Assembly (NCBI GenBank): GCA_947627835.1
Contig: CANQXM010000002.1
Span: 1-38,123 of the forward strand
DNA length: 38,123 nucleotides
Source: an uncultured Bacilli bacterium
Lineage (GTDB): Bacteria; Bacillota_I; Bacilli_A; RF39; UBA660
Reading direction: 5' to 3'
This document shows, in pieces, positions 6,929 to 25,241 of this stretch (position 1 is the stretch's first letter; every line of letters begins with the position of its first letter). The notes beneath the pieces were generated by a model. It searched no databases and was not told where the DNA came from. It saw nothing but the letters and a program-made list of their open reading frames with translations. The position numbers were made by a program, and so were the translations under genes.

Positions 6929-6946
6929 CGTTAAACTTTCTTTATT

Positions 6947-8184: not shown

Positions 8185-8266
8185 TATTGGTTTCTTTGAC
8201 TATCTTTTTTGACATATTCTAAATTCTATGATAGTGTAATAACTATTTAAAAAAGGGAAAAAGATT

Positions 8267-9331: not shown

Positions 9332-9354
9332 AATGATTTTATTCTAATCAATGG

Positions 9355-9385
9355 AAAAGCATCCAACATTGACGGATGCTTTTTC
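9355..9385 (+). terminator. Rho-independent terminator between convergent GT2 and MMPL genes
   Basis: AAAAGCATCC (9355-9364) / GGATGCTTTT (9374-9383), a 10-bp stem with a 9-nt loop, followed by T-rich sequence on the plus strand. It probably also serves the minus-strand gene. Confidence 0.7.
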
Positions 9386-12300
9386 TCATTTTGAAAGTTT
9401 TATCTTTTTAGGACGCGTAATGAAGCGATCTAATAAAGCTAAGATAGCGGGTAAGAAAACTAAAATTAGAATGGTAGAATAAATGGTTCCTTCAGAGATT
9501 GTTTTACATATTTTTGCAGCAATTGCCGATGCAAATATGGCAATGATTAATGTTACTAAGATTAAAATTAAGCTCGAAGTTAAAATGGTATGAATGGATT
9601 TATTATAGGAGTTAATGATTGCTTCTTTTATTTCCATAGTTTTTCTATGTTCTAGATAATAGGAAGTATACAAAATGGCATAGTCGATGGTTGCTCCCAT
9701 TAAGATACTTTGAACAATTAAAATGGAAATAAAGTAAACACTTTCTCCGGTTACAGATAAGATTCCCATTGTCAGATAAACGGCACATTGAATAATTAGA
9801 ACCAATATGGTTGGAAGAATGATGGATTTAAATGTGAATGCTACAACAAGGAAGATAGCAATCATCGTGATGATAGTCATTTCATTTAATTCTTTATCAA
9901 ATGTTTGACTGATTTCATAAGCCATTGGAGAATCACCGATTATATAGATCTCCTTATTTTCTTGACGCAATAAGTCTTTCATGTTTTGAATTGCTTGAAA
10001 GGTTTCTTCTCCTTCTTTTGGGAATTCGGTATTTAAAATAATTCTGGAATATTCTTTTCCTATCAGTAAGTTTTTAGCATCCCTAATTTGCGCTTTGGCA
10101 TCTATGATATCCGTTTTTAACTCGTCTTCTAGAAAATCATGGTACTTGGGACTTTCTAAAATTACATCGTGAACGTAGTTTATAAATTCTTCCAGTGTCA
10201 TTTGCCAAGTTTGATTATAGGTTTTATCACTTCCATAGTAAGTATAGAGAACATCGATTGTATTTTTTTCTACTTCATTACTTAGTTTACTTAAGATGGC
10301 AAAGATTTCATCGGCGTTATATTGGGTGTTTTGCATACAATTTTCCATAATTTGATGGATGGTATTTAACTTGGTTATTTTTTGATTATCAAAGTTTTTA
10401 CTATATGTTTCATTGGTAACCACGTCTTTTAAAATGAAGTTAATAAATTCTTTGAATGAAATTTGCATGTTTTTTCCGTTCTGGTTCCATGTGTATAACC
10501 CAAGTAATAAACGTAAGTCATTTGGATTTATGTCTAATAAGTTTGCAAGTTCTTCTGCATTCCATTTTTTATTCTTCTTTGTAAAGTCCATGACCTGATT
10601 TACAATCTTTAATTCCTTTAAGGTATTCTCTTGCATATTTGTTTTTATCACTGGATCGTTCATGTTATTTAGTAGAAACTCCGTAAATTCTACTGGTGTT
10701 AATGCGGTTTGATTTTGGTTGCTTACATAAAGTGCATAAATACTTTTGACTTTGGTTTCATCCATTTCCAGTTGTGTCGATAACTCTTTATAGGAATACT
10801 TGGTTTTTGATATACTTAAGTTTATGATTTTGGCAGCAAGTGTAATTTGCTGTTGTTCTTCAGCAGTCATGTTTTTCTTGATGTCTTCGTTTGTTAAAGC
10901 AAACTGAATCCATTCTTTTACAGACATATTCCAGTCTTCTGTATTTCCACTCAACCATTTACTTAAATTATAAATTTGATTTAGAAGGGTACTATCTATG
11001 TTTAGAATTTTTGCCATTTCTTCTTTTGAATACTTCGTTGGATCTTGTAACATTTCTTTTGGTAAAGCATTTAGTTTACTACTATCTAACTCTTTTAAGT
11101 ATGGTGTTTTTTCTTTGATAAGTTTGATATTTATTGAAAGTTCTGCAAGAGAATAGGTGTCTTTGTTTTCTTCATCAATATACTTTCCTAGGAAAACTTG
11201 ATTTACTTGTTGTTCTTCTATGTTTAATAAACTTGCTAATTCTTTGGCATTTCTTGCTTTATTTATTTGTGTTTCGTCACTAAAAGTGGATAAGTATTGG
11301 ATGGATTCTTTGGTTTTATCATCCAAAAGACTTGCGTACTCTTCTTTTGGTAAGATATTTTTGATGACGAAGTTTGCAAACTCATTTAACGTCATGGTTT
11401 CTTTGATGTCCCCTTTTAATAAATAATACTCATAAATTTCTTCGACTAGGGATTCATCCAGTGAAAATGTTTTTGCCATTTCGGTTCTTAGCATTTTCTT
11501 TTCAATGATTTCTTTGTTTGTAAAAATGCTTAACTTATTTAAATTTTCTTTAGCTCCCGTAGAGATTTTCGATGCATATTCTTTATTTGGAATGACTTCT
11601 TGATTTATAAACGTCAGAAATTCATTTAAGGATACTTCTTGATTTTTTTGGGTAGATAAGTAATAAATTAGTAGATTATCGATTTGATTTTGATCAATTT
11701 GTAAGATTTCTGCTAATTCTTCTTTTGTTCTTTTTTGATTCATTGCAGTCGGTGTGATAAAGTTTTTTAAACGGGTGATATCTTTTTTGGTGGTTTCATC
11801 AATTTTTTTATTTATTTCTGGATTTTGATACGCTTCTTGTTCAATAAAATCAACAAATTCAGCAAAAGTAAGGGCATTTTTATCTTGATCATTAAAGTAA
11901 TCATAATAGATAATTTTTAAAAGGTAGTCTTCGATTTGGCTGTTGCTATTATATTCTTTTAAACGTTCTTTTAATTTGTCATAGGTCAGTTTTTGATTGA
12001 TGGTATTGCTGTAACCTAGCACTTCTTTTACTTTTGGAATATTTTCTAAGTCATTTAATTTGGTAGCAACTTGCTCTTCTTCGTTATTTTTGTAAATTAT
12101 AGCAATTTGATTATTTTCTGTAAATACTTTTGATATTTCATCGCTTTCATTTTCTGTATAAAGAATTCCTAAATCTCCTTTTAATAAAAAGCTACCTAGA
12201 AAAATGATTATGAGTAAAGGAAGGGCTATCCATCGGAAATGATAACTGATTTTTCCTATTTTTTCTAAATGGAAATGAGGTGTTTTTTTCTTAGTTTTTT

Positions 12301-13231
12301 CAATCCATTTATCGAATATTAAGATTAAAGCAGGAAGAACAAAGAAGATGCAAAGTAAACTAAATAAAACCCCTTTGGCTAGAATAAATCCTAAGTCTTT
12401 GCCAATTTTAAAACTCATAAATACTAAGGAAAGAAGTCCAACGATTGTCGTAACGGAACTACTTGAAATGGACTGAAAAGAGGTTGCTAGCGCATTTTTC
12501 ATAGCTTTTTTCTGATCTTTTTCTTTTTGTTTTTCTTGGTCGTATCGATTCATTAACATAATGGAATAATCCATAGATAAGGCCATTTGCAAAATAGCAG
12601 AAATGGAATCGGTAATATGAGAGACATTTGGAAAAAGAATATTGGTTCCTTTATTTAATACTACAGCCATTAAAATAGTAGTTAAAAAAAGGAATGGTTC
12701 TGTATAGGATTCACACATTACTAATAAAATTATTAAAGCACAAATTACTGCTAATGCTACAATCCAAATTGGTAAGACATTTTTATTGGCATCAGAAATA
12801 TCTCCACTTGTAGCTAAGGTATATTCTTGATATTTTTCAGTAATTTCTTCTAGAATGTCTTTGGCAAGTTGGGAATCTGCTTTTTCTTCAATTGAAATGA
12901 CATATAGCGTAGCATTTTCTTTATTGTATGTACTTGATGAGTCGTATTGTACTTCTTTTACTCCAGCGATGTTTTCAAGTTCCTGAGAAATTTTACTTTT
13001 TTCTTCTTCTTGTAAGTTTGTAAACATAATGTTTAAGGTACTATTTTCTGGAAATTCACTTTCCATGATATCCATTCCAACTCTCGTTTCTGAAGTAGTT
13101 GGTAAGTATTTTGAGATATCATGATTAATTTTGACATGACTGGATAATCCGGCGGAAATTATGGTAAGTATTAGGAATACTGCCAAAATAAAATATCTTT
13201 GATCTACAATAAAGTTTGTTAATTTTTTCAT
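9386..13231 (-). CDS. MMPL/RND-superfamily membrane transporter with a giant repeat-containing extracytoplasmic loop
   Basis: Two blocks of about 5-6 TM helices (aa ~155-350 and ~1120-1265), each preceded by a soluble domain as in MMPL/YdfJ-type proteins. AAGGAG RBS. A divergent TetR regulator lies next door. Confidence 0.8.
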   Translation of the reverse strand: MKKLTNFIVDQRYFILAVFLILTIISAGLSSHVKINHDISKYLPTTSETRVGMDIMESEFPENSTLNIMFTNLQEEEKSKISQELENIAGVKEVQYDSSSTYNKENATLYVISIEEKADSQLAKDILEEITEKYQEYTLATSGDISDANKNVLPIWIVALAVICALIILLVMCESYTEPFLFLTTILMAVVLNKGTNILFPNVSHITDSISAILQMALSMDYSIMLMNRYDQEKQKEKDQKKAMKNALATSFQSISSSSVTTIVGLLSLVFMSFKIGKDLGFILAKGVLFSLLCIFFVLPALILIFDKWIEKTKKKTPHFHLEKIGKISYHFRWIALPLLIIIFLGSFLLKGDLGILYTENESDEISKVFTENNQIAIIYKNNEEEQVATKLNDLENIPKVKEVLGYSNTINQKLTYDKLKERLKEYNSNSQIEDYLLKIIYYDYFNDQDKNALTFAEFVDFIEQEAYQNPEINKKIDETTKKDITRLKNFITPTAMNQKRTKEELAEILQIDQNQIDNLLIYYLSTQKNQEVSLNEFLTFINQEVIPNKEYASKISTGAKENLNKLSIFTNKEIIEKKMLRTEMAKTFSLDESLVEEIYEYYLLKGDIKETMTLNEFANFVIKNILPKEEYASLLDDKTKESIQYLSTFSDETQINKARNAKELASLLNIEEQQVNQVFLGKYIDEENKDTYSLAELSINIKLIKEKTPYLKELDSSKLNALPKEMLQDPTKYSKEEMAKILNIDSTLLNQIYNLSKWLSGNTEDWNMSVKEWIQFALTNEDIKKNMTAEEQQQITLAAKIINLSISKTKYSYKELSTQLEMDETKVKSIYALYVSNQNQTALTPVEFTEFLLNNMNDPVIKTNMQENTLKELKIVNQVMDFTKKNKKWNAEELANLLDINPNDLRLLLGLYTWNQNGKNMQISFKEFINFILKDVVTNETYSKNFDNQKITKLNTIHQIMENCMQNTQYNADEIFAILSKLSNEVEKNTIDVLYTYYGSDKTYNQTWQMTLEEFINYVHDVILESPKYHDFLEDELKTDIIDAKAQIRDAKNLLIGKEYSRIILNTEFPKEGEETFQAIQNMKDLLRQENKEIYIIGDSPMAYEISQTFDKELNEMTIITMIAIFLVVAFTFKSIILPTILVLIIQCAVYLTMGILSVTGESVYFISILIVQSILMGATIDYAILYTSYYLEHRKTMEIKEAIINSYNKSIHTILTSSLILILVTLIIAIFASAIAAKICKTISEGTIYSTILILVFLPAILALLDRFITRPKKIKLSK
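10067..11944 (-). repeat. About 8 degenerate tandem ~80-aa protein repeats inside the MMPL transporter (aa ~430-1055)
   Basis: Recurrent pattern [ST]xxE[LM]AxxLxI[DE]xxx[VL]xxxY....(M)[ST][LF]xEFxxF[IVL]xxx[IV]...xxY. Examples are TKEELAEILQIDQNQIDNLLIYY..SLNEFLTFINQEV, LRTEMAKTFSLDESLVEEIYEYY..TLNEFANFVIKNI and NAEELANLLDINPNDLRLLLGLY..SFKEFINFILKDV. The EF anchors fall at aa ~458, 537, 617, 697, 773, 848, 928 and 1015. Confidence 0.7.
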
Positions 13232-13309
13232 GAGAAACTCCTTCTTTCTTCAAAGGCACTAGTATAGTATATTCTGGTTCTTTTGATTTAGAAAGGATAA
13301 ATTTTGGTT

Positions 13310-13331
13310 ATGTGTCTAAATTTAGACACAT
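13310..13331. promoter_or_regulatory. Perfect 22-bp palindrome, candidate TetR operator
   Basis: ATGTGTCTAAA|TTTAGACACAT is its own reverse complement. It lies 79 nt from the MMPL start and 72 nt from the TetR start in the divergent promoter region. Confidence 0.65.
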
Positions 13332-13402
13332 TCTTAAAATATGTATATATTATTTTAAAATTTTATGATATAACTGAGATATCTCTGTGAAAGGAATCGA
13401 TT

Positions 13403-13954
13403 ATGAAAGTACAATGTCTAAATTCTTCTTCTATGAAAACACGCAACTTAATTAAAAAGGTGTTTGCTCAATTAATTCATGAAAAAAAGGAATTAAATCG
13501 CATTACTGTTACTGAACTTGTCAAAAGAGCTGATATTACACGCAGTACGTTTTATACTCATTATGATAATATTTATCAAGTAGCTTCTGAGTATCAAATG
13601 CAAACGATTGACCTGTTATGTAATCCCGATTTAAAACTTCATTCTAAGCAAGATATTCTTTCTTATTTTCATAATATTTATACTTGTTTAAAAGAAAATG
13701 AAGAAACTTATAAACTCCTTTTAACTGCAGATGATTCCTTATTATTTTTAGATAAACTTAAAAATATTGCTTCTGATAAAATTTATGATGCCTTAAAAAA
13801 TATTTGTGGAGATCCTTACTTAGATTTAACCATTTCTTTTTTGATGAATGGAATTACAGTGGAAATGATCCGCTATTTTCGAAATGAAAGTTCTTATTCT
13901 TTAGAAGACTTATTTGCAAATATTCAAAGTTGGTTTCAAAAATTGTTTTCTTAA
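13403..13954 (+). CDS. TetR/AcrR-family transcriptional regulator
   Basis: N-terminal HTH ITVTELVKRADITRSTFYTHYDNIYQV (TetR signature T.FY.H), ~180 aa, divergent from a transporter gene. Confidence 0.85.
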   Translation: MKVQCLNSSSMKTRNLIKKVFAQLIHEKKELNRITVTELVKRADITRSTFYTHYDNIYQVASEYQMQTIDLLCNPDLKLHSKQDILSYFHNIYTCLKENEETYKLLLTADDSLLFLDKLKNIASDKIYDALKNICGDPYLDLTISFLMNGITVEMIRYFRNESSYSLEDLFANIQSWFQKLFS

Positions 13955-14029
13955 TTTAAGCAAGTTTTGAGCAAGTCTTTTTGATTATGATTGTGAATTA
14001 TCGTATTTCTATATCGATATTGTATCATA

Positions 14030-14091
14030 AAAAAACAAGTTTATTTTGAAGTCACTATAAAATTATTTACTTCATTTTAAACTTGTTTTTT
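14030..14091. terminator. Long imperfect hairpin, likely bidirectional terminator between TetR and copA
   Basis: AAAAAACAAGTTTA (14030-14043) pairs with TAAACTTGTTTTTT (14078-14091), with inner pairing TGAAGT/ACTTCA. T-runs follow on both strands. Confidence 0.5.
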
Positions 14092-14092
14092 C

Positions 14093-16273
14093 TTATTTAA
14101 TTTTTCTTAATCGTAGGGCATTCCCAACAACACAGAGGCTTGATAACATCATAGCAGCACTGGCAATCATGGGACTAATTTCAATTCCAAATTTTTTCAA
14201 AAGACCCATAGCAACGGGAATCATGAGTGCATTATAGAAAAAAGCCCAGAATAAATTTTCTTTAATGTTTGTAAGTGTTCTTTTACCAATTTGTAAAAAG
14301 ATAGGAATTTTACCTAGATCATCATTGGTAATGATGACACTTGCTGAGTTACTTGCGATATCCGTACTACTTTTGAGACTTATGCCAATATCTGCAGTTA
14401 CTAAAGATGGCGCGTCATTAATTCCATCTCCTACCATCATGACTTTTTTTCCTTGTTTTTGTAATTCTTTTATATATGCCGTTTTATCACTTGGCAAGAC
14501 ATCGGACACTACTTTATCAATCTGTAGTTCTTTGGCAATTTGTTTAGCAGTCGTTTCATTATCTCCGGTAAGCATGATGACATCGTAGTTTGCTTTTTTT
14601 AAGGTTTCAATCGTTTGGATAGTTTCTTTTCTTACAATGTCTTTTACACCGATAAGGGCGATGATCTCATTTTCTTCCATTACATAAATGATGCTATTTT
14701 TTTCTTTGGTTAATTTTTCTTCTTCTTTTTGATAAGGATTCTTCTGATCTTTTAAAATACTTCGATTTCCTAATACGTATTTTTTATTATTTACTTTGGC
14801 TTTGATTCCTCTTCCTGGTAATTCTTTAAAATCTTCTACTTTGAGGTTTTCTCGTTTTTCATTTTGGAAGGCTTTTGCTAAGGGATGAGAAGTCTTTGAT
14901 TCGATATTACTAATGATGTTTAAAAGGGTCTCTTTGTCATAATTGGAATGGTTATAAAATGCAGCGATTTGGGGCGTTCCATATGTTAATGTTCCGGTTT
15001 TATCAAAGATGATGGTATCAATATGAGAAGCCATTTCCAACGTTTCACTGGATTTAATTAACAAATTACTTTTTGCAGATGCACCAATGGATGTTACAAC
15101 TGCAAGTGGCGTGGCAAGTCCAAGGGCACAAGGACAAGCTACTACGAGTACGGTAACCATAGTAATTAATGCTTCATTTAAACTCGCATTGAAAATGAGA
15201 TTCCCAATTAGTGTTAAAACCGCTAGAATGATGATAGAGGGAACAAAGTAAGCACTGATTTTATCAGCAATTCGTGAAATAGGCATTTTGGAATTACTTG
15301 CTTCTAATACGAGATGAACCATTTCAGAAATAGTCGATTTCGGTCCAATTTTTTCTGCTTTGTATTCAACAACGCCATCATAGTTCATACTTCCTGCAAC
15401 AATTTTATTCCCTACTTGCTTTTTAATGGGCGTAGATTCTCCGGTAATGAAGGATTCATCAAAATGAGCCGTTCCATCTGTGATGATTCCATCCACTGCG
15501 ACTTTCATTCCAGGTTTCACTATTAACAAATCCCCTATTTTGACTTCGTCGATGGTTGTTTCTTGTTCTTTTCCATTCTTTTTTAAAAGAGCACTTTCCG
15601 GTGTTACTTTTACTAATTCTTTGATGGCTTCTTTTGTTTTTTCTTTGCTATGTTGATCAATGGTTCTTCCTAATTTAACAAATAGAATCATCATACATAC
15701 AGATTCAAAATATAGATGCATTCCGGCGTCCATGCGTCCAAAGAATAGAAGAATTACATTTACAAAGCTATATAGGAAACTGGTTAGAACTCCTAAAGAA
15801 ACTAAAGTATCCATATTGGGAGATTTTAAAAATAAGTTTTTGATTCCCTTTATGAAAATATCTTTTCCATAAATAAAATAAGGAATCGTACATATTAATA
15901 AAGCAAGGGCATGATTTTTGGGATTTTCTTTCATACTCAAAGCAGGAATTTCTGGAAAATGAAACATATGAGCCATAGATAGATACATGATTAATATCAT
16001 GAAAAGGCCAAGTGCAATTAAAATCAAAATACTTCGATCTTTTTTATTTTTTTCCTCTTCTTTATAAATTCCTTTGTAAGTGTATCCAGAGTTTTTAATA
16101 TAACTTGCTAAGGTATCAATACTGATATCATCTTCATAGTGAATAAGTGCTGTTCCCATGACTAAATTTACAGAAACATCAATGATTCCTTTTTGTTTGC
16201 TTACGTATTTTTCAATGTGGTTGGAGCAAGCAGAACACGTCATTCCTTCAATTTTTAAGATAATCTTTTTCAT
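14093..16273 (-). CDS. copA: Copper-translocating P1B-type ATPase
   Basis: N-terminal HMA domain GMTCSACSNHIEKY. Also TGES (ITGESTPI), CPC (VVACPCALGLATP), DKTGTLT, and the GDGINDAP hinge. Confidence 0.95.
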   Translation of the reverse strand: MKKIILKIEGMTCSACSNHIEKYVSKQKGIIDVSVNLVMGTALIHYEDDISIDTLASYIKNSGYTYKGIYKEEEKNKKDRSILILIALGLFMILIMYLSMAHMFHFPEIPALSMKENPKNHALALLICTIPYFIYGKDIFIKGIKNLFLKSPNMDTLVSLGVLTSFLYSFVNVILLFFGRMDAGMHLYFESVCMMILFVKLGRTIDQHSKEKTKEAIKELVKVTPESALLKKNGKEQETTIDEVKIGDLLIVKPGMKVAVDGIITDGTAHFDESFITGESTPIKKQVGNKIVAGSMNYDGVVEYKAEKIGPKSTISEMVHLVLEASNSKMPISRIADKISAYFVPSIIILAVLTLIGNLIFNASLNEALITMVTVLVVACPCALGLATPLAVVTSIGASAKSNLLIKSSETLEMASHIDTIIFDKTGTLTYGTPQIAAFYNHSNYDKETLLNIISNIESKTSHPLAKAFQNEKRENLKVEDFKELPGRGIKAKVNNKKYVLGNRSILKDQKNPYQKEEEKLTKEKNSIIYVMEENEIIALIGVKDIVRKETIQTIETLKKANYDVIMLTGDNETTAKQIAKELQIDKVVSDVLPSDKTAYIKELQKQGKKVMMVGDGINDAPSLVTADIGISLKSSTDIASNSASVIITNDDLGKIPIFLQIGKRTLTNIKENLFWAFFYNALMIPVAMGLLKKFGIEISPMIASAAMMLSSLCVVGNALRLRKIK

Positions 16274-16277
16274 GAAA

Positions 16278-16487
16278 TTATCCTTCTATAACTTCAAAGC
16301 CAAGTTCATTTATTTTGTCTTTCATGATACGCATTGGCACTTCTTTGGTAAGAGTACACTTTACTTCTCCCGTTTTGTGATTGGCATCTACTTTTTTGAT
16401 ACCTTCTATATCACTTAAAGCATTTTTAATGCGATTTTCACATCCAGTACAAGACATTCCTTTTACTTTTACAATTACTTTTTCCAT
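16278..16487 (-). CDS. copZ: Copper chaperone, HMA domain
   Basis: 69 aa with GMSCTGCENRIKNAL (MxCxxC). AGGAGG RBS. Its stop codon (16278-16280) lies 4 nt upstream of the copA start codon at 16273. Confidence 0.9.
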   Translation of the reverse strand: MEKVIVKVKGMSCTGCENRIKNALSDIEGIKKVDANHKTGEVKCTLTKEVPMRIMKDKINELGFEVIEG

Positions 16488-16499
16488 CTATTTTTCCTC

Positions 16500-16808
16500 C
16501 TATTTATGAAATCTTTTAAATAAACTGATGATTTCATCGAGTGATTCTAATTTGCCATTTTCTAAATCATCGGTAATACAACTATATAAATGTTCTTCTA
16601 AAATCATGTTGGATAAATTTTGAATGGCTTTTTCCACTGCAGCTAGTTCGATTAGTACATCGTTGCAATAAACATTTTCATTAATCATTTTTTGAATGCC
16701 ATGAATTTGACCTTCAATTCGATTTAGACGATGATTTAATAATTCTAGGTCTTTGGTTCCACGTTTATTTTTTCGATAATGACAACATTTCTCACTCATT
16801 TTTTTCAC
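16500..16808 (-). CDS. csoR: CsoR-family copper-sensing transcriptional repressor
   Basis: RLNRIEGQIHGIQKMI core of the CsoR/DUF156 family, with C-H-C ligand positions (VYCNDV ... EEHLYSC). First gene of the cop operon. Confidence 0.9.
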   Translation of the reverse strand: MKKMSEKCCHYRKNKRGTKDLELLNHRLNRIEGQIHGIQKMINENVYCNDVLIELAAVEKAIQNLSNMILEEHLYSCITDDLENGKLESLDEIISLFKRFHK

Positions 16809-16847
16809 CAGTCTTATTATAATATAATTCTTAAAAATATAAAATAA

Positions 16848-16862
16848 GGGGGTATATGGTGG
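16848..16862. promoter_or_regulatory. G5-containing box GGGGGTATATGGTGG, candidate CsoR operator half-site
   Basis: This is the only G/C-rich element in the otherwise AT-only csoR upstream region, 40-55 nt upstream of the start. Described CsoR operators carry a GGGGGTA-type arm as I remember it, but I cannot see the matching TACCC arm. Confidence 0.3.
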
Positions 16863-16883
16863 ATTTCCTTTTAAAACAAATAT

Positions 16884-18077
16884 TTACTCGTTTTTTAAAA
16901 TGAATTCTTTTAATTTATTTATTTGGCGATTTAGTAAAACACATAGCCGATAGATTCGTTTATCAGAATATCCAGTTAAATGTTGGTATTGATGTAATAG
17001 ATCATCAAACCATTCAACAATTCCATCTAATTTGCTTATTTCAATTCTTTTTGGGTTTTTAACTACTTTTATGATTTCATCAAATGGTTTTACTTCATAA
17101 AATAATCTTCCACTTCCAGAAATGTGTACTTCATCTTCATCATAATATTCGATATTTAAACTTTGACCGTTATCAAATATTGGTGCTACATCTAGCCATT
17201 TTAAGGTATTCACATCTCTTATAATTCCAAAGTTATTTAAATGGCGATCTTCATTCATAATCAGAAAATCTAGAATATACATATTCTCCATTTTTTCTCT
17301 TGCATTTTCTATTCCATTATCTTCTAATTTTTTAATATATTCTTCATAATCTTCTAAACTATCATGTTTTTTCATATCATTTTTAATTTGATAGCAAGTA
17401 ATTAGTTCTGTATCTTTCGTTATAAAGCAGGGGCATTTTGATACTACGATATCTTTATAGGTATCAATGGTATATTCTACATGATTAAATCCGAGTCTTT
17501 TACAAATTTCACTTGCTAATGCTTCATTAAATGGTTGCAGCGTCTCATTTTTATAACCACCTTTTAATAGATATCTTATTCCGTTTTCTATTATCCAAGC
17601 TTTTTTAAGCATTCCATCGGTAGTATTATTTGGAGTTTTTAATGAAGTTTCTCTCGTAATTGTTTTACTATTTACTGATAAAGATGCTTCCATAAACTCT
17701 GCATAATCAAAATCATTGTCAAAGAAATTAATATCATCATAGGAAACGTCACTATCATAAGGTTTTAACCAATATTGATCGGATAAGGATAGTCCAAAAG
17801 CTTTATCTAAAAGTTCATAGGGTGCTATTATATTTAAACGATGTAATAATAAATCTAATTTATCACGCCATGAAGGAATTCCTCTTCCTTTAAACCAATC
17901 ACTTAAATTTTTTCGAAAGGGAGTGTCATTGATATCATCTTCCATATAAAAACTTTTTAAAATATAAGGTGCATAATTGATGTCTGTTACTTCGTAGATT
18001 CTATCGAAAAATTTTGATGTTTCATTATATTCAGCAGTCAATACTTCTTTATTTTTATTCATTAGTATACATTTCAT
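16884..18077 (-). CDS. HipA-like Ser/Thr kinase domain protein (solo, no HipB-like neighbour)
   Basis: The catalytic-loop-like motif LIMNEDRHLNNFGIIRD resembles the HipA_C (D/N)xDxHxxN pattern. AAGGAAG RBS. An extended -10 TGGTATAAT lies at 18115-18107. Confidence 0.65.
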   Translation of the reverse strand: MKCILMNKNKEVLTAEYNETSKFFDRIYEVTDINYAPYILKSFYMEDDINDTPFRKNLSDWFKGRGIPSWRDKLDLLLHRLNIIAPYELLDKAFGLSLSDQYWLKPYDSDVSYDDINFFDNDFDYAEFMEASLSVNSKTITRETSLKTPNNTTDGMLKKAWIIENGIRYLLKGGYKNETLQPFNEALASEICKRLGFNHVEYTIDTYKDIVVSKCPCFITKDTELITCYQIKNDMKKHDSLEDYEEYIKKLEDNGIENAREKMENMYILDFLIMNEDRHLNNFGIIRDVNTLKWLDVAPIFDNGQSLNIEYYDEDEVHISGSGRLFYEVKPFDEIIKVVKNPKRIEISKLDGIVEWFDDLLHQYQHLTGYSDKRIYRLCVLLNRQINKLKEFILKNE

Positions 18078-18316
18078 GAGTTAGTCACTTCCTTTTTAAT
18101 GCTATTATTATACCATACTAAACTAGATAAAAACACTTTCTCTGATGCAATTTTATCCATTTTCATTCATGGTTTTTCCTCTTTAAAATTTACTTTTTAA
18201 TCCTAATCGTTAAATGGTAATAATTTCATTAAAAATCTTCTTTACTTATATGATATTCCACCATTTTTTTAACATATTTTAAAAATAGGTTAAATTTTTA
18301 TTTCTATTTTCACCAA

Positions 18317-18346
18317 TTTACGAATTTGTCTTATCCGTGATACAAT
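18317..18346 (+). promoter_or_regulatory. Promoter of the 314-aa orphan gene
   Basis: TTTACG (18317-18322), an 18-nt spacer, then TG-A-TACAAT (extended -10; hexamer at 18341-18346). GAGGTGA RBS at 18353-18359 and ATG at 18364. Confidence 0.55.
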
Positions 18347-18363
18347 GAAATTGAGGTGATATT

Positions 18364-19308
18364 ATGGCTATTCAGGATCCAAAACCGGATGAAATTGTTC
18401 CTTCAAAAACTCAGAAAGGAAAGCAAGAAGGATTTACTATTCTTTTTACTGAGGCATATGCTATGCCAAGTAATACTTATGTGGAAGATGATTCTCATAC
18501 GTTTACGGTTTCTCTCGATCGAAGTCTTTGTTGGAAGAATTTTGGACGATGTTGGTTTGATGAAGGAGAGCGGGAGTTGATTGCCAAACAAACTGCTTAT
18601 AAGGAGTGGTTACTGGAGTTTTGTCCGCCGAAAGACTATGCTAAGTGTGGAATTATGTTTGGAATAAATGGAGTTTGCCATACAACTTCTAACCGAGAAT
18701 TATTGATTGGAGAAGATAACGTAGATGTTCGTCTTGCGCCGAAAAATTTTGTGACGGTTTCTATTTTTGGTAAATATGGGTTTGGTTTAGATATTTTAAA
18801 ACAACTCATTACAGATTCTTATCATCGGGCAAGTTTACAAGTACCGATGGCAGAAGATGTTTTACAAATGGTACTGGATCGTATTGATCAAACTTTAGAT
18901 GATGAAGTTTTGGCTTGGAGACAACTGATGAGTGAATATTTCATGTTACCAATTGAAACCATCTTACAAAAGCATCCGGATGCCGTGGCAAATTTACGGA
19001 TGATGATTACTCATCTTTTACAAAACCGTGAACTCATTTATGAAGAATTTCGCAAACGACAAGTTGTTCAACCGACCTATGAAAAAAATATTTATATGTT
19101 ACTCAGTCAAAGCGTTTCTAATTATTTGGACTTTTTGGTTCAAGCAGGCTATATTGATAATACGATGCGTACCAATGCCTTACAAGCAATGATCCTATTT
19201 TTTAATCGTTTGTTTCGCGTCGTTGATGGACAAGTACAAGCCGTTACCCAAATGGGAGGACTTGATCAAAATCTTGTTAAAAAATTACAACGAACGGGTA
19301 AAATTTAA
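18364..19308 (+). CDS. Hypothetical protein, no recognisable family; compositionally atypical
   Basis: A 314-aa ORF with a good RBS, its own promoter and a strong terminator. My hand count gives about 38-42% G+C in sampled lines (18601-18660, 19021-19080), against about 23-32% in neighbouring genes. It uses CCG/CGA/GCC codons that look uncommon in the neighbouring genes I read (not counted). Confidence 0.75.
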   Translation: MAIQDPKPDEIVPSKTQKGKQEGFTILFTEAYAMPSNTYVEDDSHTFTVSLDRSLCWKNFGRCWFDEGERELIAKQTAYKEWLLEFCPPKDYAKCGIMFGINGVCHTTSNRELLIGEDNVDVRLAPKNFVTVSIFGKYGFGLDILKQLITDSYHRASLQVPMAEDVLQMVLDRIDQTLDDEVLAWRQLMSEYFMLPIETILQKHPDAVANLRMMITHLLQNRELIYEEFRKRQVVQPTYEKNIYMLLSQSVSNYLDFLVQAGYIDNTMRTNALQAMILFFNRLFRVVDGQVQAVTQMGGLDQNLVKKLQRTGKI

Positions 19309-19335
19309 CTCTAAGTTTTCTTAGAGTTTTTTAAT
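19307..19335 (+). terminator. Strong rho-independent terminator after the orphan gene
   Basis: AACTCTAAG (19307-19315) / CTTAGAGTT (19320-19328), a 9-bp stem with a TTTT loop, followed by a T-run. Confidence 0.8.
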
Positions 19336-19374
19336 TTATTTGATTAAAAGTGCTACAAAATGTATCAAAAATAG

Positions 19375-19403
19375 TTGACTTTTTATTAAAATGGGTTCAA
19401 AAT
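19375..19403 (+). promoter_or_regulatory. Promoter candidate for ATPase A
   Basis: TTGACT (19375-19380), a 17-nt spacer, then CAAAAT (19398-19403), 50 nt upstream of the ATG at 19453. The -10 is weak. Confidence 0.35.
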
Positions 19404-19452
19404 GGAATAAATGAAAGCTTATTTTCCATATTATTAGTAGGAGGTTTTTTAT

Positions 19453-20808
19453 ATGTTTACTTATGTAAAAGCCAAAAACTTTAAATCTTTAAAAGATGTC
19501 TTTTTTCAATTTAATAAAAATAAAACTACGACAAATCACCTCATTGCATTATACGGAGAAAATGGCAGTGGGAAAACACATGTAGTTGAACTTTTTAAAT
19601 TTTTGCAATTTGTTACGATGTCTCGTTTACTGGATACTTCTGTTCAGAAATTACCCAAAGAATTTTTTGAAATGCGCTATCAAGTGGAAGAAAATTTTTC
19701 TCATGAACTTAGTTCTTTGTTATCTACTAACTTTCATCTTGTTGACTATCGAATGATTGATGAAACGGATCCTACTGAAATTGAATTTGGATTTAAAATT
19801 CAACAAAAAGAAGGATTTTACTTCATTCGTTTTAATCATGAAATCCTAGAAGAAAAACTATATTATGTTGCTGAAAAACAAAAGACCTATTTGTTTGATA
19901 TTCATAGGGAAAATGGAAAAATTGTTAAAAATTTCAGTAAACAGGTATTTAAAAATGAAAAATATAATAAAGAGTTGAAAGAAACGATTGATCAGTTATG
20001 GGGCAAGTATTCTTTTTTATCATTACTAACTTTTGAAATTCACGAAAAGAATCCTGATTATATTAAAGAGAGTCTTTCTATTTCTTTATGTGAAGTTCTT
20101 ACTTTGATTAGCCAGTTAACGGTTTTTGTCGATCGAAAATCTATGCCAAATTTACTAGATTCTCTTTTTGCACCGAAGGCAGATTTTCGTATTCAATCTG
20201 GAACGATCATGAAAGAAAATCTTATGGAACTACAAAAATATGAAACTGTTTTAAATATTTTCTTTACTCAAGCTTATGCAGATATTAAAGAAGTAAAATA
20301 TCAAACTATTGAAAAAGAGGATCAAATTCAGTATGAACTATATTTTTATAAAGTAATTGGAGGAACTTTAAAAGCAATTCCTTACCGCTTAGAATCTGCT
20401 GGAACAAAACGAATTTTAGATCATTTTGATGTCATAACTGGTGCACTTCTTGGAGAAGTTGTTGTGATGGATGAAATTGATAATGGAATTCATGATTTAC
20501 TTATGAAGAATATCATTTTATCTATTCAAGATGAAATTACTGGTCAGTTAATTTTTACAACTCATAATACGCTTTTATTAGAGGTTTTACCAAAAGAAAA
20601 TATCTATATTATATTTACGAATCCTACTGGAGATAAAATGATTCATTGTATACGTGATTACTCTATTCGTATTCAAAAGAATCATAATGCTAGAGATTTA
20701 TATTTAAAGGGAATCTTTGGAGGAATTCCAAATACGGATTATATTGATTTTGAAGAAATCAAATACAACTTAGAAAAGAGCGATCAACATGATGAAGAAA
20801 CGTCCTAA
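19453..20808 (+). CDS. ABC/OLD-type (AAA_21-like) ATPase, module A
   Basis: Walker A GENGSGKT (K41 = nt 19573-19575). Signature-like LESAGTKR. Walker B VVVMDEID. H-loop FTTHN. C-terminal YLKGIFGGIP tail shared with ATPase B (YLNGVFNGMP). AGGAGG RBS. Confidence 0.85.
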   Translation: MFTYVKAKNFKSLKDVFFQFNKNKTTTNHLIALYGENGSGKTHVVELFKFLQFVTMSRLLDTSVQKLPKEFFEMRYQVEENFSHELSSLLSTNFHLVDYRMIDETDPTEIEFGFKIQQKEGFYFIRFNHEILEEKLYYVAEKQKTYLFDIHRENGKIVKNFSKQVFKNEKYNKELKETIDQLWGKYSFLSLLTFEIHEKNPDYIKESLSISLCEVLTLISQLTVFVDRKSMPNLLDSLFAPKADFRIQSGTIMKENLMELQKYETVLNIFFTQAYADIKEVKYQTIEKEDQIQYELYFYKVIGGTLKAIPYRLESAGTKRILDHFDVITGALLGEVVVMDEIDNGIHDLLMKNIILSIQDEITGQLIFTTHNTLLLEVLPKENIYIIFTNPTGDKMIHCIRDYSIRIQKNHNARDLYLKGIFGGIPNTDYIDFEEIKYNLEKSDQHDEETS

Positions 20809-21388
20809 TTATATACGTATTATTGTGATTGCTCATGGAAAAAGTGAACTTTTACTTGCAGAACATATCAAAAGTAATCTTCATCTTCCGATTCAAATCT
20901 ATGCTGAAAATCATGGAAAAACCAGTATTATGATTGATGGACTTCCCAATGTTCTTGGCAATAATATTTTTAAAAATAAAACTTCTTTGTTACGTCATTA
21001 TGCAATTGAAACTAGTGGAAAGCAACTTAAAAATTTGGTTATCATGCCTATTATGGATTTAGATGAAACGAGTGTAGAAGCTTATAAATCGAAAGAGATT
21101 TTTGCTAGTCATTGGCTTTCTCCTTATATTGTTCCAATTTGGAATAATGAAAATTTGGATGCCGTTTTATTTCATCTTGGACTTATTGATCATATTCCGA
21201 ATGATAAAGAAAAAGGAAAAATGTATCGTCAGCTTTTTCCTACTAATCATGAAGGTCCTGATTTTGAACAAGTAAAAATGTTAAGGGACGCATTTAGAAA
21301 TTCGAAAAACACAAATATGGAAATTTTTTTGGATGCCTGTCTCCAGTGTTTTGAAGAGTTCTATTCGGATGATACCAAAAGTTCATAA
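20789..21388 (+). CDS. Small RloB/Toprim-like partner protein, module A (degenerate first acidic motif)
   Basis: The start overlaps the ATPase A stop by 20 nt. Three blocks, IIVIAHGKSE, IMPIMDLDE and VPIWNNENLDAVLFHL, align by eye with FVEGENDE, FLWDRD and SYPCIQSYILENF of the module B partner. They also align with the EGxxTE / vFDrD / SNPcFElWlLlH blocks I recall for RloB-like proteins. Confidence 0.55.
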   Translation: MMKKRPNYIRIIVIAHGKSELLLAEHIKSNLHLPIQIYAENHGKTSIMIDGLPNVLGNNIFKNKTSLLRHYAIETSGKQLKNLVIMPIMDLDETSVEAYKSKEIFASHWLSPYIVPIWNNENLDAVLFHLGLIDHIPNDKEKGKMYRQLFPTNHEGPDFEQVKMLRDAFRNSKNTNMEIFLDACLQCFEEFYSDDTKSS

Positions 21389-23109
21389 GGACTAGCTAGA
21401 GTTCCATTGCCACTTGTCATTTTCACTCCGGCTTTTAGATTGATGACTGGTCGTACTCCATTTGGAAAATTCACACTGTTTCCCATCAGTGTCCCATCAT
21501 AATACATGGCTCTTACGTAGGCAAAGTCACCAAAAAAGGCTCCAGATGACATCGTCCAGTAATTACTTCCGTTATATAAATAAAAATGGGTGTTAGCTGC
21601 AATGTAAATGCCACCGGCATAGGTAATTTCATCTTGGGTAATTAAACCAATGGGATAGGTTAAGGCGCCATTCCCTATCGTTTTATCTGTTACTGTGAAA
21701 CGGTCACTTGGATTTTCACAGCGGTATGTGACATCCTTCCCTGCTATGTCATAACCGCGATAATAGGTTTCTTTTTCACCGAAGCCCATTTCATTTTGAT
21801 GATACCAATTTCCAAAAGGGGAAAACTGGTTTTCAATTCCAAGTTTCGTTGCAAACTCATAAAAATTTTGATAAACCTCTTCTTTCATAATGCTTCGGTC
21901 ATTACAAAAAAGAGTATCTGATATCATCTTTTCATAGATTGTATTTTGAAGATTTGTTTCATACCAAGCATCTAGCGCTTTTTTAATTGTGCTATCCACT
22001 TTATTTGTTTGGGCATTTTTTTCACTGGTACTTGGAACATCTCCGTACATATAACCTACATATGCATTATCACTGGCATTGGTATTAAAACTTACAGCAG
22101 TGGTAATTTGAGAATCTGAGCCTTGATAATCTTCTTTCTTGGTTTTATTTGGATCATATTCTCCAGTATAGATTAACCGAATGGAATCATCGCCGTTTAC
22201 TCTTATAATTCGCCACATTTTATTTGCAAAGACCACATAATTATTTTCTACTTCTCCACGAAAGTAATAACTGACTCCATAGTCATCAAATGTTTTATAA
22301 AGGCCATTTGTTGTATCATAATGATTGATATCATACGTAAAAGCAAATTGATCATAATAGGGACTATCTTTATATTGTGCTAAAATGCTTGCAAATTGTT
22401 CTTCGATTTCTTCTTTGGACTTCACGCTTACAGCAGCTTTTCCAATTTGAGGAACATTTTTGGTATCTACCTCTGCAATTATTTTACACATCAAGGCATT
22501 TTCTCCATATTTTTTTATGCACTTTTCTTCTTCGGTCGGAACGGATGATGTATAAAACGCTTTTACGGTTATTTTCCCTTGATAGGTTTTTGAATTTGTT
22601 TTTGAGCTGGCTTTGGTATTTTCATCTAACCATAGACGTAAATTATATTGAACGCTACCTTCTTTTGAGAAATATTCTGTATAAAGTTTTCTTGAATTTT
22701 GAGCGTTTTTAATAGTTGGAGTAGCCTTTTCATAACCGTTTAGTATTCCTAAGGTGTGTTCTTCCTTGTTTTCTGTATTTAACTCTACTTTTAGGTATTC
22801 ATCTGATAAGTCACTACCCTTTAATTCCTCTAAGTATATTTCATACATAACATTCGATGAGCAGGTATTTTGAATGGTAAATTGATAAGGCTCTGTACTC
22901 ATTCCTTCTTGATCGGTCATTGGCAAAACATTGGGTAAGTAAATTCCACTATTATCTTCTGTAAAATCCACTTTTAAACAATCTGTTGCTACGACATTTG
23001 CCATGTTTTCTTCACTTGCAAACAACCAATGCGCGTAGGAAGTTCCACTTACTACCAATATAATTAAAAGAAACGTTACTGCTAAGAAAAGAAGTATTTG
23101 CTTTTTCAT
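21361..23109 (-). CDS. Secreted or cell-surface protein with a TasA-like signal region and a DUF6273-like C-terminus
   Basis: The N-terminal KKQILLFLAVTFLLIILVVSGTSYAHWLFASEE resembles SipW/TasA-type leaders (GGTFAYFSD-like). The C-terminal YWTMSS...GVRPVINLKAGVKMTSGNGTLASPYEL is of the W..S../RPvI.L/GdGT..nPY type common in Firmicutes surface proteins. Confidence 0.7.
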   Translation of the reverse strand: MKKQILLFLAVTFLLIILVVSGTSYAHWLFASEENMANVVATDCLKVDFTEDNSGIYLPNVLPMTDQEGMSTEPYQFTIQNTCSSNVMYEIYLEELKGSDLSDEYLKVELNTENKEEHTLGILNGYEKATPTIKNAQNSRKLYTEYFSKEGSVQYNLRLWLDENTKASSKTNSKTYQGKITVKAFYTSSVPTEEEKCIKKYGENALMCKIIAEVDTKNVPQIGKAAVSVKSKEEIEEQFASILAQYKDSPYYDQFAFTYDINHYDTTNGLYKTFDDYGVSYYFRGEVENNYVVFANKMWRIIRVNGDDSIRLIYTGEYDPNKTKKEDYQGSDSQITTAVSFNTNASDNAYVGYMYGDVPSTSEKNAQTNKVDSTIKKALDAWYETNLQNTIYEKMISDTLFCNDRSIMKEEVYQNFYEFATKLGIENQFSPFGNWYHQNEMGFGEKETYYRGYDIAGKDVTYRCENPSDRFTVTDKTIGNGALTYPIGLITQDEITYAGGIYIAANTHFYLYNGSNYWTMSSGAFFGDFAYVRAMYYDGTLMGNSVNFPNGVRPVINLKAGVKMTSGNGTLASPYELLVSSE

Positions 23110-23150
23110 AAGGCTGTCCTTTCATTTTTACTACTCTCTTATTTGCAGTT

Positions 23151-23180
23151 AGTATACAACATGATGACAAAAATCGACAA
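23151..23180 (-). promoter_or_regulatory. Promoter candidate for the secreted-protein gene
   Basis: On the minus strand, TTGTCG (23180-23175), an 18-nt spacer, then TATACT (23156-23151), about 40 nt upstream of the ATG at 23109. Confidence 0.35.
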
Positions 23181-23224
23181 TCTTTTATTTCTATTATTTA
23201 CATATTATTCCTAATATTTTTTAT

Positions 23225-24010
23225 TTATGGTCTTTCAGTTATGATATTTAAATCAATTAAAATGATGGAAACCAGTGATAACATTTTATAGTATTGATGA
23301 TTTGAAAAGAAGTTTTCTTCATATTCAAATATTTTCATATTGGTTTTCGAAAAGTTGGATGGATCATAATCTTTGATTCCTATTTTCATCAATTTATTAT
23401 GAAGCATATTAACGCTTTTTAATAAAGTATGTGTATTTATTTCACTAATTCTATATCCGTTTTTCGAAAGGTATTTTTTTAAATCTTTGATTTGTAAATT
23501 TTCTGTATTTTCTTTAAAATTTTCTAAAATATAACTTTGAATACATGGGTAACTTAGCAATAATAAGCCATTGATACCATCATTATTTTCATAAGCATTT
23601 CCTAATGATTTTAATAATTTCTTTGTAATATCGGCACGATTAGATATATAATCTCGGTCCCATAAAAAATATATTGGTACATTTTTTATATCTATATGAT
23701 ATTTTTCATACATCATTTTAAATATCTGATTTTGGTAATCCACATCTTTCACAATATTCTGAATATTAGAATTCCTTAAATTGATTACCAATATTTGTGA
23801 GTTTTCATTTCCTCTCATTACATATTGATCATAGTCATTTATTTTTACTCTATTTCTCTTTTTTTCAATGTATCGATAGTGAAGTACATTTCGAAAAATT
23901 TGTTTTAATATTTCACATTCATCATTTTCGCCTTCAACAAATATTACTACTGTTCCAATGTTTCTGCGCAGATTAATCTTTAAAGTGCTTGTTGTATTTT
24001 GGCATTCCAT
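23225..24010 (-). CDS. RloB/Toprim-like partner protein, module B
   Basis: VVIFVEGENDECEILKQIF (Toprim Glu block), PIYFLWDRDYIS (DxD block) and LLLSYPCIQSYILENF (the SNPCFELW-like block of RloB-like proteins). I prefer the ATG at 24010 (GGAG 6 nt upstream) over the one at 24022. It overlaps ATPase B by 38 nt. Confidence 0.65.
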   Translation of the reverse strand: MECQNTTSTLKINLRRNIGTVVIFVEGENDECEILKQIFRNVLHYRYIEKKRNRVKINDYDQYVMRGNENSQILVINLRNSNIQNIVKDVDYQNQIFKMMYEKYHIDIKNVPIYFLWDRDYISNRADITKKLLKSLGNAYENNDGINGLLLLSYPCIQSYILENFKENTENLQIKDLKKYLSKNGYRISEINTHTLLKSVNMLHNKLMKIGIKDYDPSNFSKTNMKIFEYEENFFSNHQYYKMLSLVSIILIDLNIITERP

Positions 24011-25127
24011 TGAAAACTCCATTTAAATACATTTTTTCTGTATTTTGAGATTCTCTTGGCATTTCTTCCGAGAATCTTTTGAGTACGCTTCCCTTTTTTG
24101 GGTTAAAAGTAACAGAATAAATTTGGTCTGGACGAAGGATGGTGTTATTTAATAAATTGGTTGAATGGGAAGCTAAGAAAATTTGTGAGTTTTTCGCATA
24201 GTGAAAAAAGAATTTCAAAAAGCTTTCTTCTAGTTCATTATGAAACCCACTACTAAATTCATCAACGACGATGATACAATCATTTTTGATAGCATGTAAG
24301 AAAGAAGGAATTAATTGCATTAATGTAACATTTCCAGTAGATTCAAATATTTCAGGAATATAAATATTTGTTCCATTTTTATTAAAAGAAACATATTTTT
24401 TGTTATTATCTATTACTACTTGAATTTTTCCTTTTAAATCTATCTTCTCTTTTCCATAAGAAATGGTTTGTGGGTAATTAATTTGTTCTAGGAATTTATT
24501 TATCATGCTTACATCATGTTCATTTAAATAATCATGAATTAACAATGATTCGTCTGTATAGCAATGGGCTTTACGTGTATAACAATTAATATAGACTGAG
24601 TTTTTCATATAATCAAACCACTTATTTAGTAACTTATCATCATAGAAATGAGTATCAAAATAAATTCTTCTTAAAAAGGGTAGTTTTTCAGAAACATTAT
24701 CAAAATTTTTTTCTTTCTCAAAAGTAAATTGGGCATTTTTTCCAAGTCTCTTTAAAATATTTTGATCATTGATATAGAGTTCTTCTGCAACAATTTTTGT
24801 TAAATCGAGCTCAATATAATAGCGAATAGTTTGATTATCTATTAAAAAAGTATACTCAAATTCATAAGTTTCTTTTTCACTATAAAAACTTTTTTTAAAT
24901 AAAAAATCGTTTTCCTTATTATCAAAGAGAATATCTAATAGAAAACGAATGGCTTCCAGTATTTTGGTTTTTCCTGAGGCGTTTTCTCCGACGAAAAGAC
25001 ATCCTTTTAAGATTCGATTGGCTCCAACATTTTCACTTTCTAAAAATTTATAGTTTGTAGCTGAAAAATCAATTTCAGTCTTATTTAAAAATGTTGTATA
25101 ATTGTTGATCATAATTTTTTTTAGCAT
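23973..25127 (-). CDS. ABC/OLD-type (AAA_21-like) ATPase, module B
   Basis: Walker A GENASGKT. Signature-like FESTGNVT. Walker B CIIVVDEFSSG. H-loop LASHSTNLL. C-terminal YLNGVFNGMP. Confidence 0.85.
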   Translation of the reverse strand: MLKKIMINNYTTFLNKTEIDFSATNYKFLESENVGANRILKGCLFVGENASGKTKILEAIRFLLDILFDNKENDFLFKKSFYSEKETYEFEYTFLIDNQTIRYYIELDLTKIVAEELYINDQNILKRLGKNAQFTFEKEKNFDNVSEKLPFLRRIYFDTHFYDDKLLNKWFDYMKNSVYINCYTRKAHCYTDESLLIHDYLNEHDVSMINKFLEQINYPQTISYGKEKIDLKGKIQVVIDNNKKYVSFNKNGTNIYIPEIFESTGNVTLMQLIPSFLHAIKNDCIIVVDEFSSGFHNELEESFLKFFFHYAKNSQIFLASHSTNLLNNTILRPDQIYSVTFNPKKGSVLKRFSEEMPRESQNTEKMYLNGVFNGMPKYNKHFKD

Positions 25128-25150
25128 AAAACATTTCCCCTTTTGATACT

Positions 25151-25179
25151 ATTATGCATCAAATGTAAAAAAATTACAA
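25151..25179 (-). promoter_or_regulatory. Promoter candidate for ATPase B
   Basis: On the minus strand, TTGTAA (25179-25174), a 17-nt spacer, then CATAAT (25156-25151), about 25 nt upstream of the ATG at 25127. A second, near-consensus TTGACT-16-TATAAT lies at 25239-25212, upstream of the hairpin. Confidence 0.35.
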
Positions 25180-25208
25180 TCAATTTTATTTAATTGTAAT
25201 TTTTTTAC
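25165..25208. terminator. 16-bp AT-rich perfect hairpin at the end of the polysaccharide operon
   Basis: GTAAAAAAATTACAAT (25165-25180) / ATTGTAATTTTTTTAC (25193-25208) with a 12-nt loop. It lies 34 nt downstream of the FrhB-like stop codon, and the T7 run lies inside the 3' arm on either strand. Confidence 0.45.
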
Positions 25209-25241
25209 ACTATTATAATATTTCTTTAGTAAAAGTCAACT

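Follow-up and report, generated by a model that had tools for sequence, protein, structure and literature searches.

A mosaic accessory block of copper-resistance and phage-defence-type genes, probably exchanged recently between two species of uncultured gut Bacilli

We analysed a 38,123-nt stretch of contig CANQXM010000002.1 from an uncultured Bacilli bacterium (hereafter the window), in which a copper-resistance operon adjoins a run of genes resembling phage-defence systems. The genome is a 1.13-Mb metagenome-assembled genome (MAG) of 118 contigs (G000); its close relatives are registered as 'uncultured Bacilli bacterium' and their sources are mainly rabbit and human gut. A previous reading made from the letters alone (the sequence-only reading) had singled out positions 16884-25241 as a defence-island-like block, and all seven open reading frames (ORFs) that it listed are found in the order, at the places and on the strands claimed: a gene for a HipA-like kinase, an orphan gene, an ATPase gene with an overlapping small partner gene (module A), a gene for a 582-aa protein, and a second partner and ATPase on the opposite strand (module B) (Table 1). 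Its remark that base composition changes gene by gene is true as well, but the swings are modest, from 24.6% G+C in the partner B gene to 36.4% in the orphan gene, compared with 31.5% for the genome. Transcription units were called solely from consensus promoter and terminator scans. As the sequence-only reading had proposed, the genes were searched with defence-annotation models, for which we used PADLOC. Clear matches were obtained for four of the seven genes and a weak one for partner B, which has RloB support at the level of its family; the matches were to AbiLi, PDC-M03A and, weakly, AbiLii, so that the genes were not all assigned to functions other than defence.

Table 1. Features of the block, followed by defence-type genes elsewhere in the window (positions are those of the window).
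Feature	Position	Strand	Description
Segment common to the window and congener G006	14086-25223		97-98% nucleotide identity
Copper-resistance cargo	14093-16808	-	copA, copZ, csoR
copA	14093-16273	-	Pfam E1-E2_ATPase, Hydrolase, HMA
copZ	16278-16487	-	MxCxxC motif
csoR	16500-16808	-	Trns_repr_metal 1.5e-25
HipA_C-like kinase	16884-18077	-	ORF, 397 aa
Extended -10 of the kinase promoter	18107-18115	-	TGGTATAAT on the minus strand, read from an alignment
SoFic remnant	18183-18229	-	~13 nt of the 3' end and ~36 nt of the 5' end; coordinates inferred from BLAST offsets
Predicted monocistronic orphan cassette	18317-19328	+	Extended -10 promoter-like site (18317-18346), ORF, terminator-like hairpin (19307-19328)
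Orphan	18364-19308	+	ORF, 314 aa
ATPase A (AAA_21)	19453-20808	+	ORF, 451 aa
Partner A	20789-21388	+	ORF, 199 aa; 20-nt overlap with the ATPase A gene
582-aa protein	21361-23109	-	ORF; N-terminal hydrophobic, signal-like segment
Partner B	23225-24022	-	ORF, 265 aa; start probably M5 at 24010
ATPase B (AAA_21)	23973-25127	-	ORF, 384 aa; overlaps the partner B gene
Module B control region	25164-25239	-	Promoter TTGACT-16-TATAAT (25239 to 25212), then AT-rich palindrome (25209 to 25164)
PDC-S01 ATPase outside the block	2880-4160	-	AAA_14/DUF4143; 3.6e-154
SoFic paralogue outside the block	6947-8026	-	Full-length; PADLOC 2.6e-93; 30% identical to that of G006

Searching 40 relatives at the DNA level, we found the block in one congener only, the MAG G006. 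Positions 5596-9704 of G006 contig C10 aligned with window positions 14086-18195 at 97.7% identity, and positions 10712-15804 with window positions 18194-23247 at 96.6%, with remnants continuing to 25223. The shared segment starts seven bases below the stop codon of copA and ends immediately beyond the palindrome in front of module B, and its copA, copZ and csoR genes are 98-100% identical in the two genomes. In contrast, a syntenic 15-kb core region showed an identity of only 78-79% between G000 and G006, and of 76-77% between G000 and other congeners. The surroundings of the two copies are unrelated: the flanks in the window (14 kb on the left and 13 kb on the right) have no homologue in G006, and the flanks on the G006 contig (5.6 kb on the left and the ~3.8 kb examined on the right) have no homologue in G000 except for one stretch of 66% identity. 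Given that the block is 97-98% identical while the core is 78-79% identical, and that the flanks differ, the data are most simply read as a recent event of horizontal exchange that involved the entire ~11-kb block, now found in different backgrounds, and in which copper resistance would have travelled with the defence genes. Because the shared segment takes in the copper operon, positions 16884-25241 are not the limits of a natural unit, and the earlier description of a block wedged between the cop operon and a polysaccharide locus has to be given up; the operon itself is part of the exchanged segment. The two near-identical copies also differ by insertions and deletions: the window copy is short of SoFic through deletion, and the copy in G006 is short of module B.

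A binning or assembly artefact, in which the G006 contig would really come from a strain of the window's species, has to be weighed against this exchange, as both genomes are fragmentary MAGs (completeness 87-89%, 70-118 contigs) and G006 derives from a rabbit-gut data set. A contig of the same species should, however, match G000 in both flanks, and apart from the single 66% stretch it does not; conversely, the flanks in the window match nothing in G006. Whichever way the contig is assigned, the block is present in two genomic backgrounds, and we consider an artefact very improbable.

The block is accessory. Of the nine congeners other than G006, eight carry no DNA of the block and one (G004) carries fragments of the kinase gene only, so that a block found in one of ten congeners and entirely missing from eight is not an invariant part of the genus core, in agreement with the earlier expectation. 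When 151 genera of the family were searched by protein or profile, the kinase was located in 26 of them, partner B in 5 (a remnant in one case), partner A in 3 and the orphan in 2. As for the copper genes, copA orthologues in G002 and G009 share only 49% identity and are not accompanied by csoR, and csoR lies beside tRNA synthetase genes in another member of the genus (G010) and beside secretion genes in a member of another genus (G012). The sequence-only reading had called the locus a variable hotspot and suggested comparing the interval between the cop and polysaccharide genes across relatives. The comparison upheld the variability, as seen in the rare genes and the insertions and deletions, and gave no support to a hotspot in which the same flanking core genes enclose different contents, since no relative shares either flank and the neighbours of the cop genes differ in G010 and G012. 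What the block does have is the make-up of a defence island, in that two AbiL-type pairs, a PDC-M03A match and a SoFic remnant occur together, are patchy among relatives and are affected by indels between the two copies.

No tRNA gene was detected in a scan of the 38-kb window, no window ORF of at least 100 aa encodes an integrase or transposase domain, and no convincing direct repeat flanks the block in the window, where short repeats occur at chance level only. These scans bear out the earlier statement that an integrase, transposase, tRNA or obvious flanking repeat could not be recognised. Comparison of the boundary sequences revealed nothing in common and no att-like site; thus, the block does not combine a recombinase or transposase with att sites or inverted repeats at its ends, as a mobile element would. 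Conceivably, the block is what decay has left of a larger integrative element (an integrative and conjugative element, a prophage or a serine-recombinase island, for example) whose mobility genes have disappeared or are situated beyond the segment compared, the defence and copper genes being the cargo of that element. In 8-12 of 80 other loci a large serine recombinase gene precedes the kinase gene at a distance of 55 bp, homologues of the orphan have as a neighbour an IS200 transposase, an integrase, or a type IV secretion system (T4SS) coupling protein with a serine recombinase, and contigs of human-faecal phages carry relatives of the kinase with 35% identity, all of which is consistent with such an origin. 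Nevertheless, recombinase, transposase, tRNA and repeat are all absent from the window and likewise, as far as examined, from the initial 20 kb of the contig in G006, and the limits of homology, at a stop codon and just past a palindrome between promoter and gene, are not att-like. We regard a remnant of this kind as possible, though on the unlikely side.

Turning to the content of the block, both ATPases carry intact Walker A and B motifs and both have AbiLi as their best-scoring defence model. ATPase B matched AbiLi at 3.1e-48, PDC-M12A at 4.4e-32 and Pfam AAA_21 at 1.3e-17. Matches to AriA were weaker than those to AbiLi and mostly concerned a model that mirrors generic AAA_21. Partner B itself matched AbiLii at 7.8e-4 and fell below the Pfam cut-off for RloB. 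An exhaustive HMMER search assembled relatives of partner B in 291 clusters at 50% identity, and in an alignment of 31 members of the family 11 matched Pfam RloB (PF13707; best 6.7e-8), while the residues E30, G31, E35, D122 and D124, which are of Toprim type, were invariant. A search of the partner B profile against the sequences of the PDB gave no match. The RloB matches within the family together with the invariant Toprim-type residues indicate that module B is an AbiL/RloAB-type pair, with partner B as a divergent RloB/Toprim protein by the evidence of its family alignment. Modules A and B share with AbiL and RloA-RloB the layout of a two-gene operon in which an AAA_21/ABC (ATP-binding cassette) ATPase gene is followed by an overlapping gene for a small partner, of Toprim type in module B and weakly Toprim-like in module A. 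Module B differs from these systems in that partner B reaches AbiLii at 7.8e-4 only and Pfam RloB only through its relatives.

Upstream of ATPase B lies the hairpin that the sequence-only reading had described as a 16-bp perfect hairpin marking the right border of the island. The hairpin exists and is longer than claimed: its arms (25164-25183 and 25190-25209) comprise 20 nt each, are 95% complementary, give 20-22 paired positions and contain the 16-bp perfect core. Its fold energy is -21.2 kcal/mol (z = -6.65), a value that none of 200 shuffled sequences attained. As a border mark it does not stand. A consensus scan placed a promoter matching 11 of 12 consensus positions and reading into ATPase B upstream of the palindrome; the palindrome lies directly 3' of this promoter and hence belongs to the control region of module B. 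It is kept together with remnants of module B elsewhere. Of module B, G006 has retained the promoter and palindrome, ~40 ATPase B codons and a junction piece of 90 bp, the rest being lost; in G014, a member of another genus, a palindrome of 78% identity accompanies the final 37 partner B codons, and the neighbours there are an OLD-type gene and a kinase gene copy. The palindrome thus probably serves module B as an operator or 5' leader. Another AT-rich palindrome (AAAAAACAAGTTTA...TAAACTTGTTTTTT), at 14030-14091, is positioned between copA and a convergent TetR gene. It falls immediately beyond the left end of the exchanged segment and is absent from G006.

In module A, ATPase A matched Pfam AAA_21 at 1.5e-20 and PADLOC AbiLi at 8.9e-43; its Walker A motif reads GENGSGKT and its Walker B motif VVVMDEID. 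Partner A belongs to a family of 408 homologous clusters, none of which has a Pfam domain; no hidden Markov model (HMM) of Pfam, NCBIfam, PHROGs or PADLOC matched the protein, nor did its profile match PDB sequences. The AlphaFold2 model of partner A (predicted local distance difference test, pLDDT, 84) was compared with the PDB by Foldseek, and the top four matches were all to Class 2 OLD proteins, in their C-terminal Toprim regions (6njw, E 6.5e-3, probability 0.90), although these are weak (E 6.5e-3 to 1.8e-2). The motifs HGKSE and MDLDD are invariant in the family. At window positions 20834-20851 (residues 16-20 of partner A) the invariant His of HGKSE stands where a Toprim domain would have its first Glu, and the DxD of MDLDD is kept; when the profiles of the partners were compared with each other, the one short stretch that aligned put His16 of partner A opposite the invariant Glu30 of partner B, the profile-profile comparison as a whole not being significant. 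The replacement of Glu by His could mean that the active site is altered or that the variant is non-catalytic. Partner A departs from AbiL and Rlo proteins in this residue, in its shorter length (199 aa) and in matching none of RloB, AbiLii, DUF4435 and DUF4276. In other gut contigs a homologous ATPase-partner pair is located directly 3' of the type I restriction-modification genes hsdS-hsdR, and in this module A resembles the Rlo genes, whose classical 'restriction-linked' place is after hsdS-hsdR. Module A might represent a new Toprim branch within the OLD/AbiL class, with His in place of Glu, and ranks after the orphan as a candidate for novelty. A recent duplication as the origin of the two modules was rejected; the ATPases are 25% identical over 128 aa only and the partners cannot be aligned.

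Compared with PARIS (AriA/AriB) and nucleases of the OLD family such as P2 Old and GajA of Gabija, the modules share the combination of an ABC ATPase with a Toprim nuclease, which for partner A is suggested by the weak structural matches to Class 2 OLD. Unlike PARIS, neither partner, nor the partner B family, matches DUF4435 (PF14491) or AriB, and unlike Class 1 and Class 2 OLD, in which they are joined, ATPase and nuclease are encoded here as separate proteins.

The kinase matched Pfam HipA_C with 32.9 bits (cut-off 30.5) and PADLOC PDC-M03A at 9e-21. Its nearest relative of solved structure is CtkA of Helicobacter pylori (3akj, 1e-8). The catalytic-loop motif NEDRHLNNFG aligns with NFDRHNGNWG of CtkA and the motif APIFDNG with APIFDCG, and the loop aligns with that of HipT as well. 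The protein therefore has the HipA_C core with catalytic-loop and Mg-binding motifs in common with HipA, HipT and CtkA, and like CtkA it occurs solo. Its N-terminal 150 aa gave no match, and model searches found neither HipA_N nor Couple_hipA. In contrast to HipBA and HipBST, no HipB (helix-turn-helix, HTH) or HipS antitoxin gene is present beside the kinase gene, and the 287-bp upstream region holds only the promoter and the SoFic remnant. A conserved partner encoded elsewhere in the neighbourhood was also considered and rejected, as across the 80 best loci, taken from at least 179 species genomes that carry the kinase, no family fills the upstream position in more than eight; the commonest genes downstream, of a 463-aa and a 527-aa family, match no PADLOC model.

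In these 80 loci the kinase protein is 80-98% identical, whereas CopA reaches 50-66% identity between genera, and nucleotide similarity covers the ORF and ~40-60 bp upstream of the ATG and then ends sharply. The neighbours differ almost everywhere. They include large serine recombinases, SoFic, the Fic family PDC-S72, JetA, HsdR, Old and AbiLi; in four loci its two neighbours are recA and rny, and two copies of the gene occur in some genomes. The variable neighbours and the restriction of similarity to ORF and promoter support the view of the kinase gene as a mobile, defence-associated single-gene cassette of ~1.25 kb (window 16884-18140) consisting of promoter and ORF. Such defence-type contexts in many genomes set it apart from HipA and CtkA. 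The solo kinase is most likely a toxin-type or abortive-infection kinase.

Between the kinase and orphan genes, G006 has an intact gene of 351 aa (locus L011, 9692-10747) with the domains Fic_N, Fic and SoFic-like_C, which matched PADLOC SoFic at 5.8e-115. About 1,007 bp of this gene are gone from the window, leaving ~50 nt from its two ends. The sister copy is hence full-length like known SoFic genes, and unlike them the window retains inside the block only these remnants; the window has in addition a second SoFic paralogue and a PDC-S01 ATPase gene outside the block (Table 1). Elsewhere in G000 we found two further pairs of an AbiLi-like ATPase and a small partner (contig C6, 22211-24413, and contig C21, 9422-11139). 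The partner on C6 has the classical RloB motif ASEGQTTEPRYF, and the partner on C21 starts with ILLLCEGLNEE, as does a 179-aa partner beside the kinase gene in G019. By their sequences, the 1.13-Mb genome thus contains four ATPase-partner pairs, all of different subtypes. Two HTH/XRE proteins are encoded at window positions 315-2547.

The orphan has homologues in only 16 clusters among 5.8 billion proteins, none with a Pfam domain. No match was found to its sequence in Pfam, NCBIfam, PHROGs or PDB sequences, nor in phages by tblastn, and in PADLOC it reached PDC-S19 at 0.005 only. Its AlphaFold2 model (pLDDT 76) gave no Foldseek match in the PDB or BFVD. The invariant residues include C56, C63, C87 and C105 as well as H45 and H106. 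With an occurrence in 2 of 151 genera a core gene could be rejected, and so could a tie to the ATPase, as in G021 the orphan stands alone beside IS200. This homologue (locus L015; G021, contig C3, 6922-8441) is 58% identical and lies between the rpsL and rplL clusters, next to the IS200-type Y1 transposase gene. Elsewhere the neighbours of orphan homologues are an integrase followed by a polysaccharide locus, another polysaccharide locus, a large helicase, a T4SS coupling protein with a serine recombinase, and AbiE with a PDC-S01-like ATPase. In six of the seven known contexts, with the AbiL module of the window counted, the orphan is beside mobility or defence genes, and it is clearly accessory cargo. 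It stays a reasonable candidate for a new function as the sequence-only reading had proposed, and might be an immunity or exclusion factor of a new kind made of one gene, although we think this quite doubtful.

The same proposal had included the 582-aa protein. This protein is no orphan: it has more than 4,328 homologues, some of which match DUF6273 (PF19789), and paralogues of its domain are encoded on four other contigs of G000. A conserved core of ~100 nt (window 22186-22287), encoding DDYGVSYYFRGEVENNYVVFANKMWRIIRVNGDD, is found again with 71-79% nucleotide identity in eight or more related genomes, a single genome often having several copies. Homologues adjoin ftsW, relA, aspS and mutS. 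As a member of a large paralogous family found in housekeeping contexts the protein is a poor immunity candidate, and it is probably a secreted or surface protein of the general repertoire of the lineage, carried as a passenger and not as a defence gene. The 3' ends of its gene and of the convergent partner A gene overlap by 28 nt (21361-21388), and a terminator between them is absent.

How the block might act can be outlined from its relatives. HipA and HipT are kinases that act on a translation component, and the kinase of the block might by analogy shut down such a component. AbiL was defined as an abortive-infection system. In each ATPase-partner pair the ATPase would be the likely sensor of infection, holding or licensing the Toprim nuclease by analogy with PARIS, OLD and Gabija, and the licensed nuclease would cut nucleic acid and so abort the infection. 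AbiL has been grouped with PARIS, OLD, Gabija and MADS3-4 as systems in which an ABC ATPase is combined with a Toprim nuclease, and this architecture has been tied by experiment to anti-phage defence in PARIS, OLD and Gabija (PMC11464382). The two pairs and the toxin-type kinase, joined by SoFic in the sister copy, would act as independent modules, and the orphan and the 582-aa protein would be passengers.

The pairs and the kinase could also be selfish addiction modules resembling toxin-antitoxin (TA) systems, kept by post-segregational killing in what is otherwise ordinary strain-variable DNA, their link to defence being incidental. Pfam annotates AAA_21 as 'putative AbiEii toxin, Type IV TA system', the kinase falls within the HipA toxin superfamily, a 1.13-Mb genome holds as many as four ATPase-partner pairs, and modules have been lost by deletion, observations that would fit such a view. 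On the other hand, AbiL is an abortive-infection system and the ATPase-Toprim architecture has the experimental link to defence described above, and in other genomes the modules adjoin restriction-modification, SoFic, Wadjet and Old genes. The addiction and defence readings are not mutually exclusive; addiction with defence as a mere coincidence appears unlikely to us.

Taken together, the data make it likely that positions 14086-25223 are a mosaic accessory block of ~11 kb that was recently exchanged as one piece, is decaying by deletions, and carries a copper operon together with independent modules of phage-defence type. Several points weigh against this interpretation. The core identity with which the block is compared comes from a single 15-kb region. 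No mobility gene, att site or repeat in the block points to a route of transfer, so that the manner of its movement is itself conjectural, and with MAGs mis-binning cannot be fully dismissed, though the block would still be present in two sequence contexts. The label of a defence island fits only part of the block, as neither the 582-aa protein nor the cop operon plays a part in defence. In addition, the PDC families of PADLOC are candidates only, and the Toprim assignment of partner A is weak (E 6.5e-3, a TM-score of ~0.36, no HMM match, and an invariant His as the first catalytic residue).

Blocks of this kind are already well known and current concepts remain unchanged. To our knowledge, however, very little is known of phage defence and gene flow in uncultured gut Bacilli with reduced genomes (~1.1 Mb). 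The genome described here suggests that such bacteria invest heavily in defence, with four ABC-ATPase/Toprim pairs, two SoFic-type genes (the deleted one counted), a PDC-S01 protein and a HipA-like kinase. It also suggests that whole multi-gene blocks, copper resistance included, move between species that are ~79% identical with no visible mobility gene, and then erode by deletion. The partner family devoid of Pfam domains, with its 408 clusters and unusual His in the Toprim motif, the conserved solo kinase cassette and the rare orphan would be candidates for testing.

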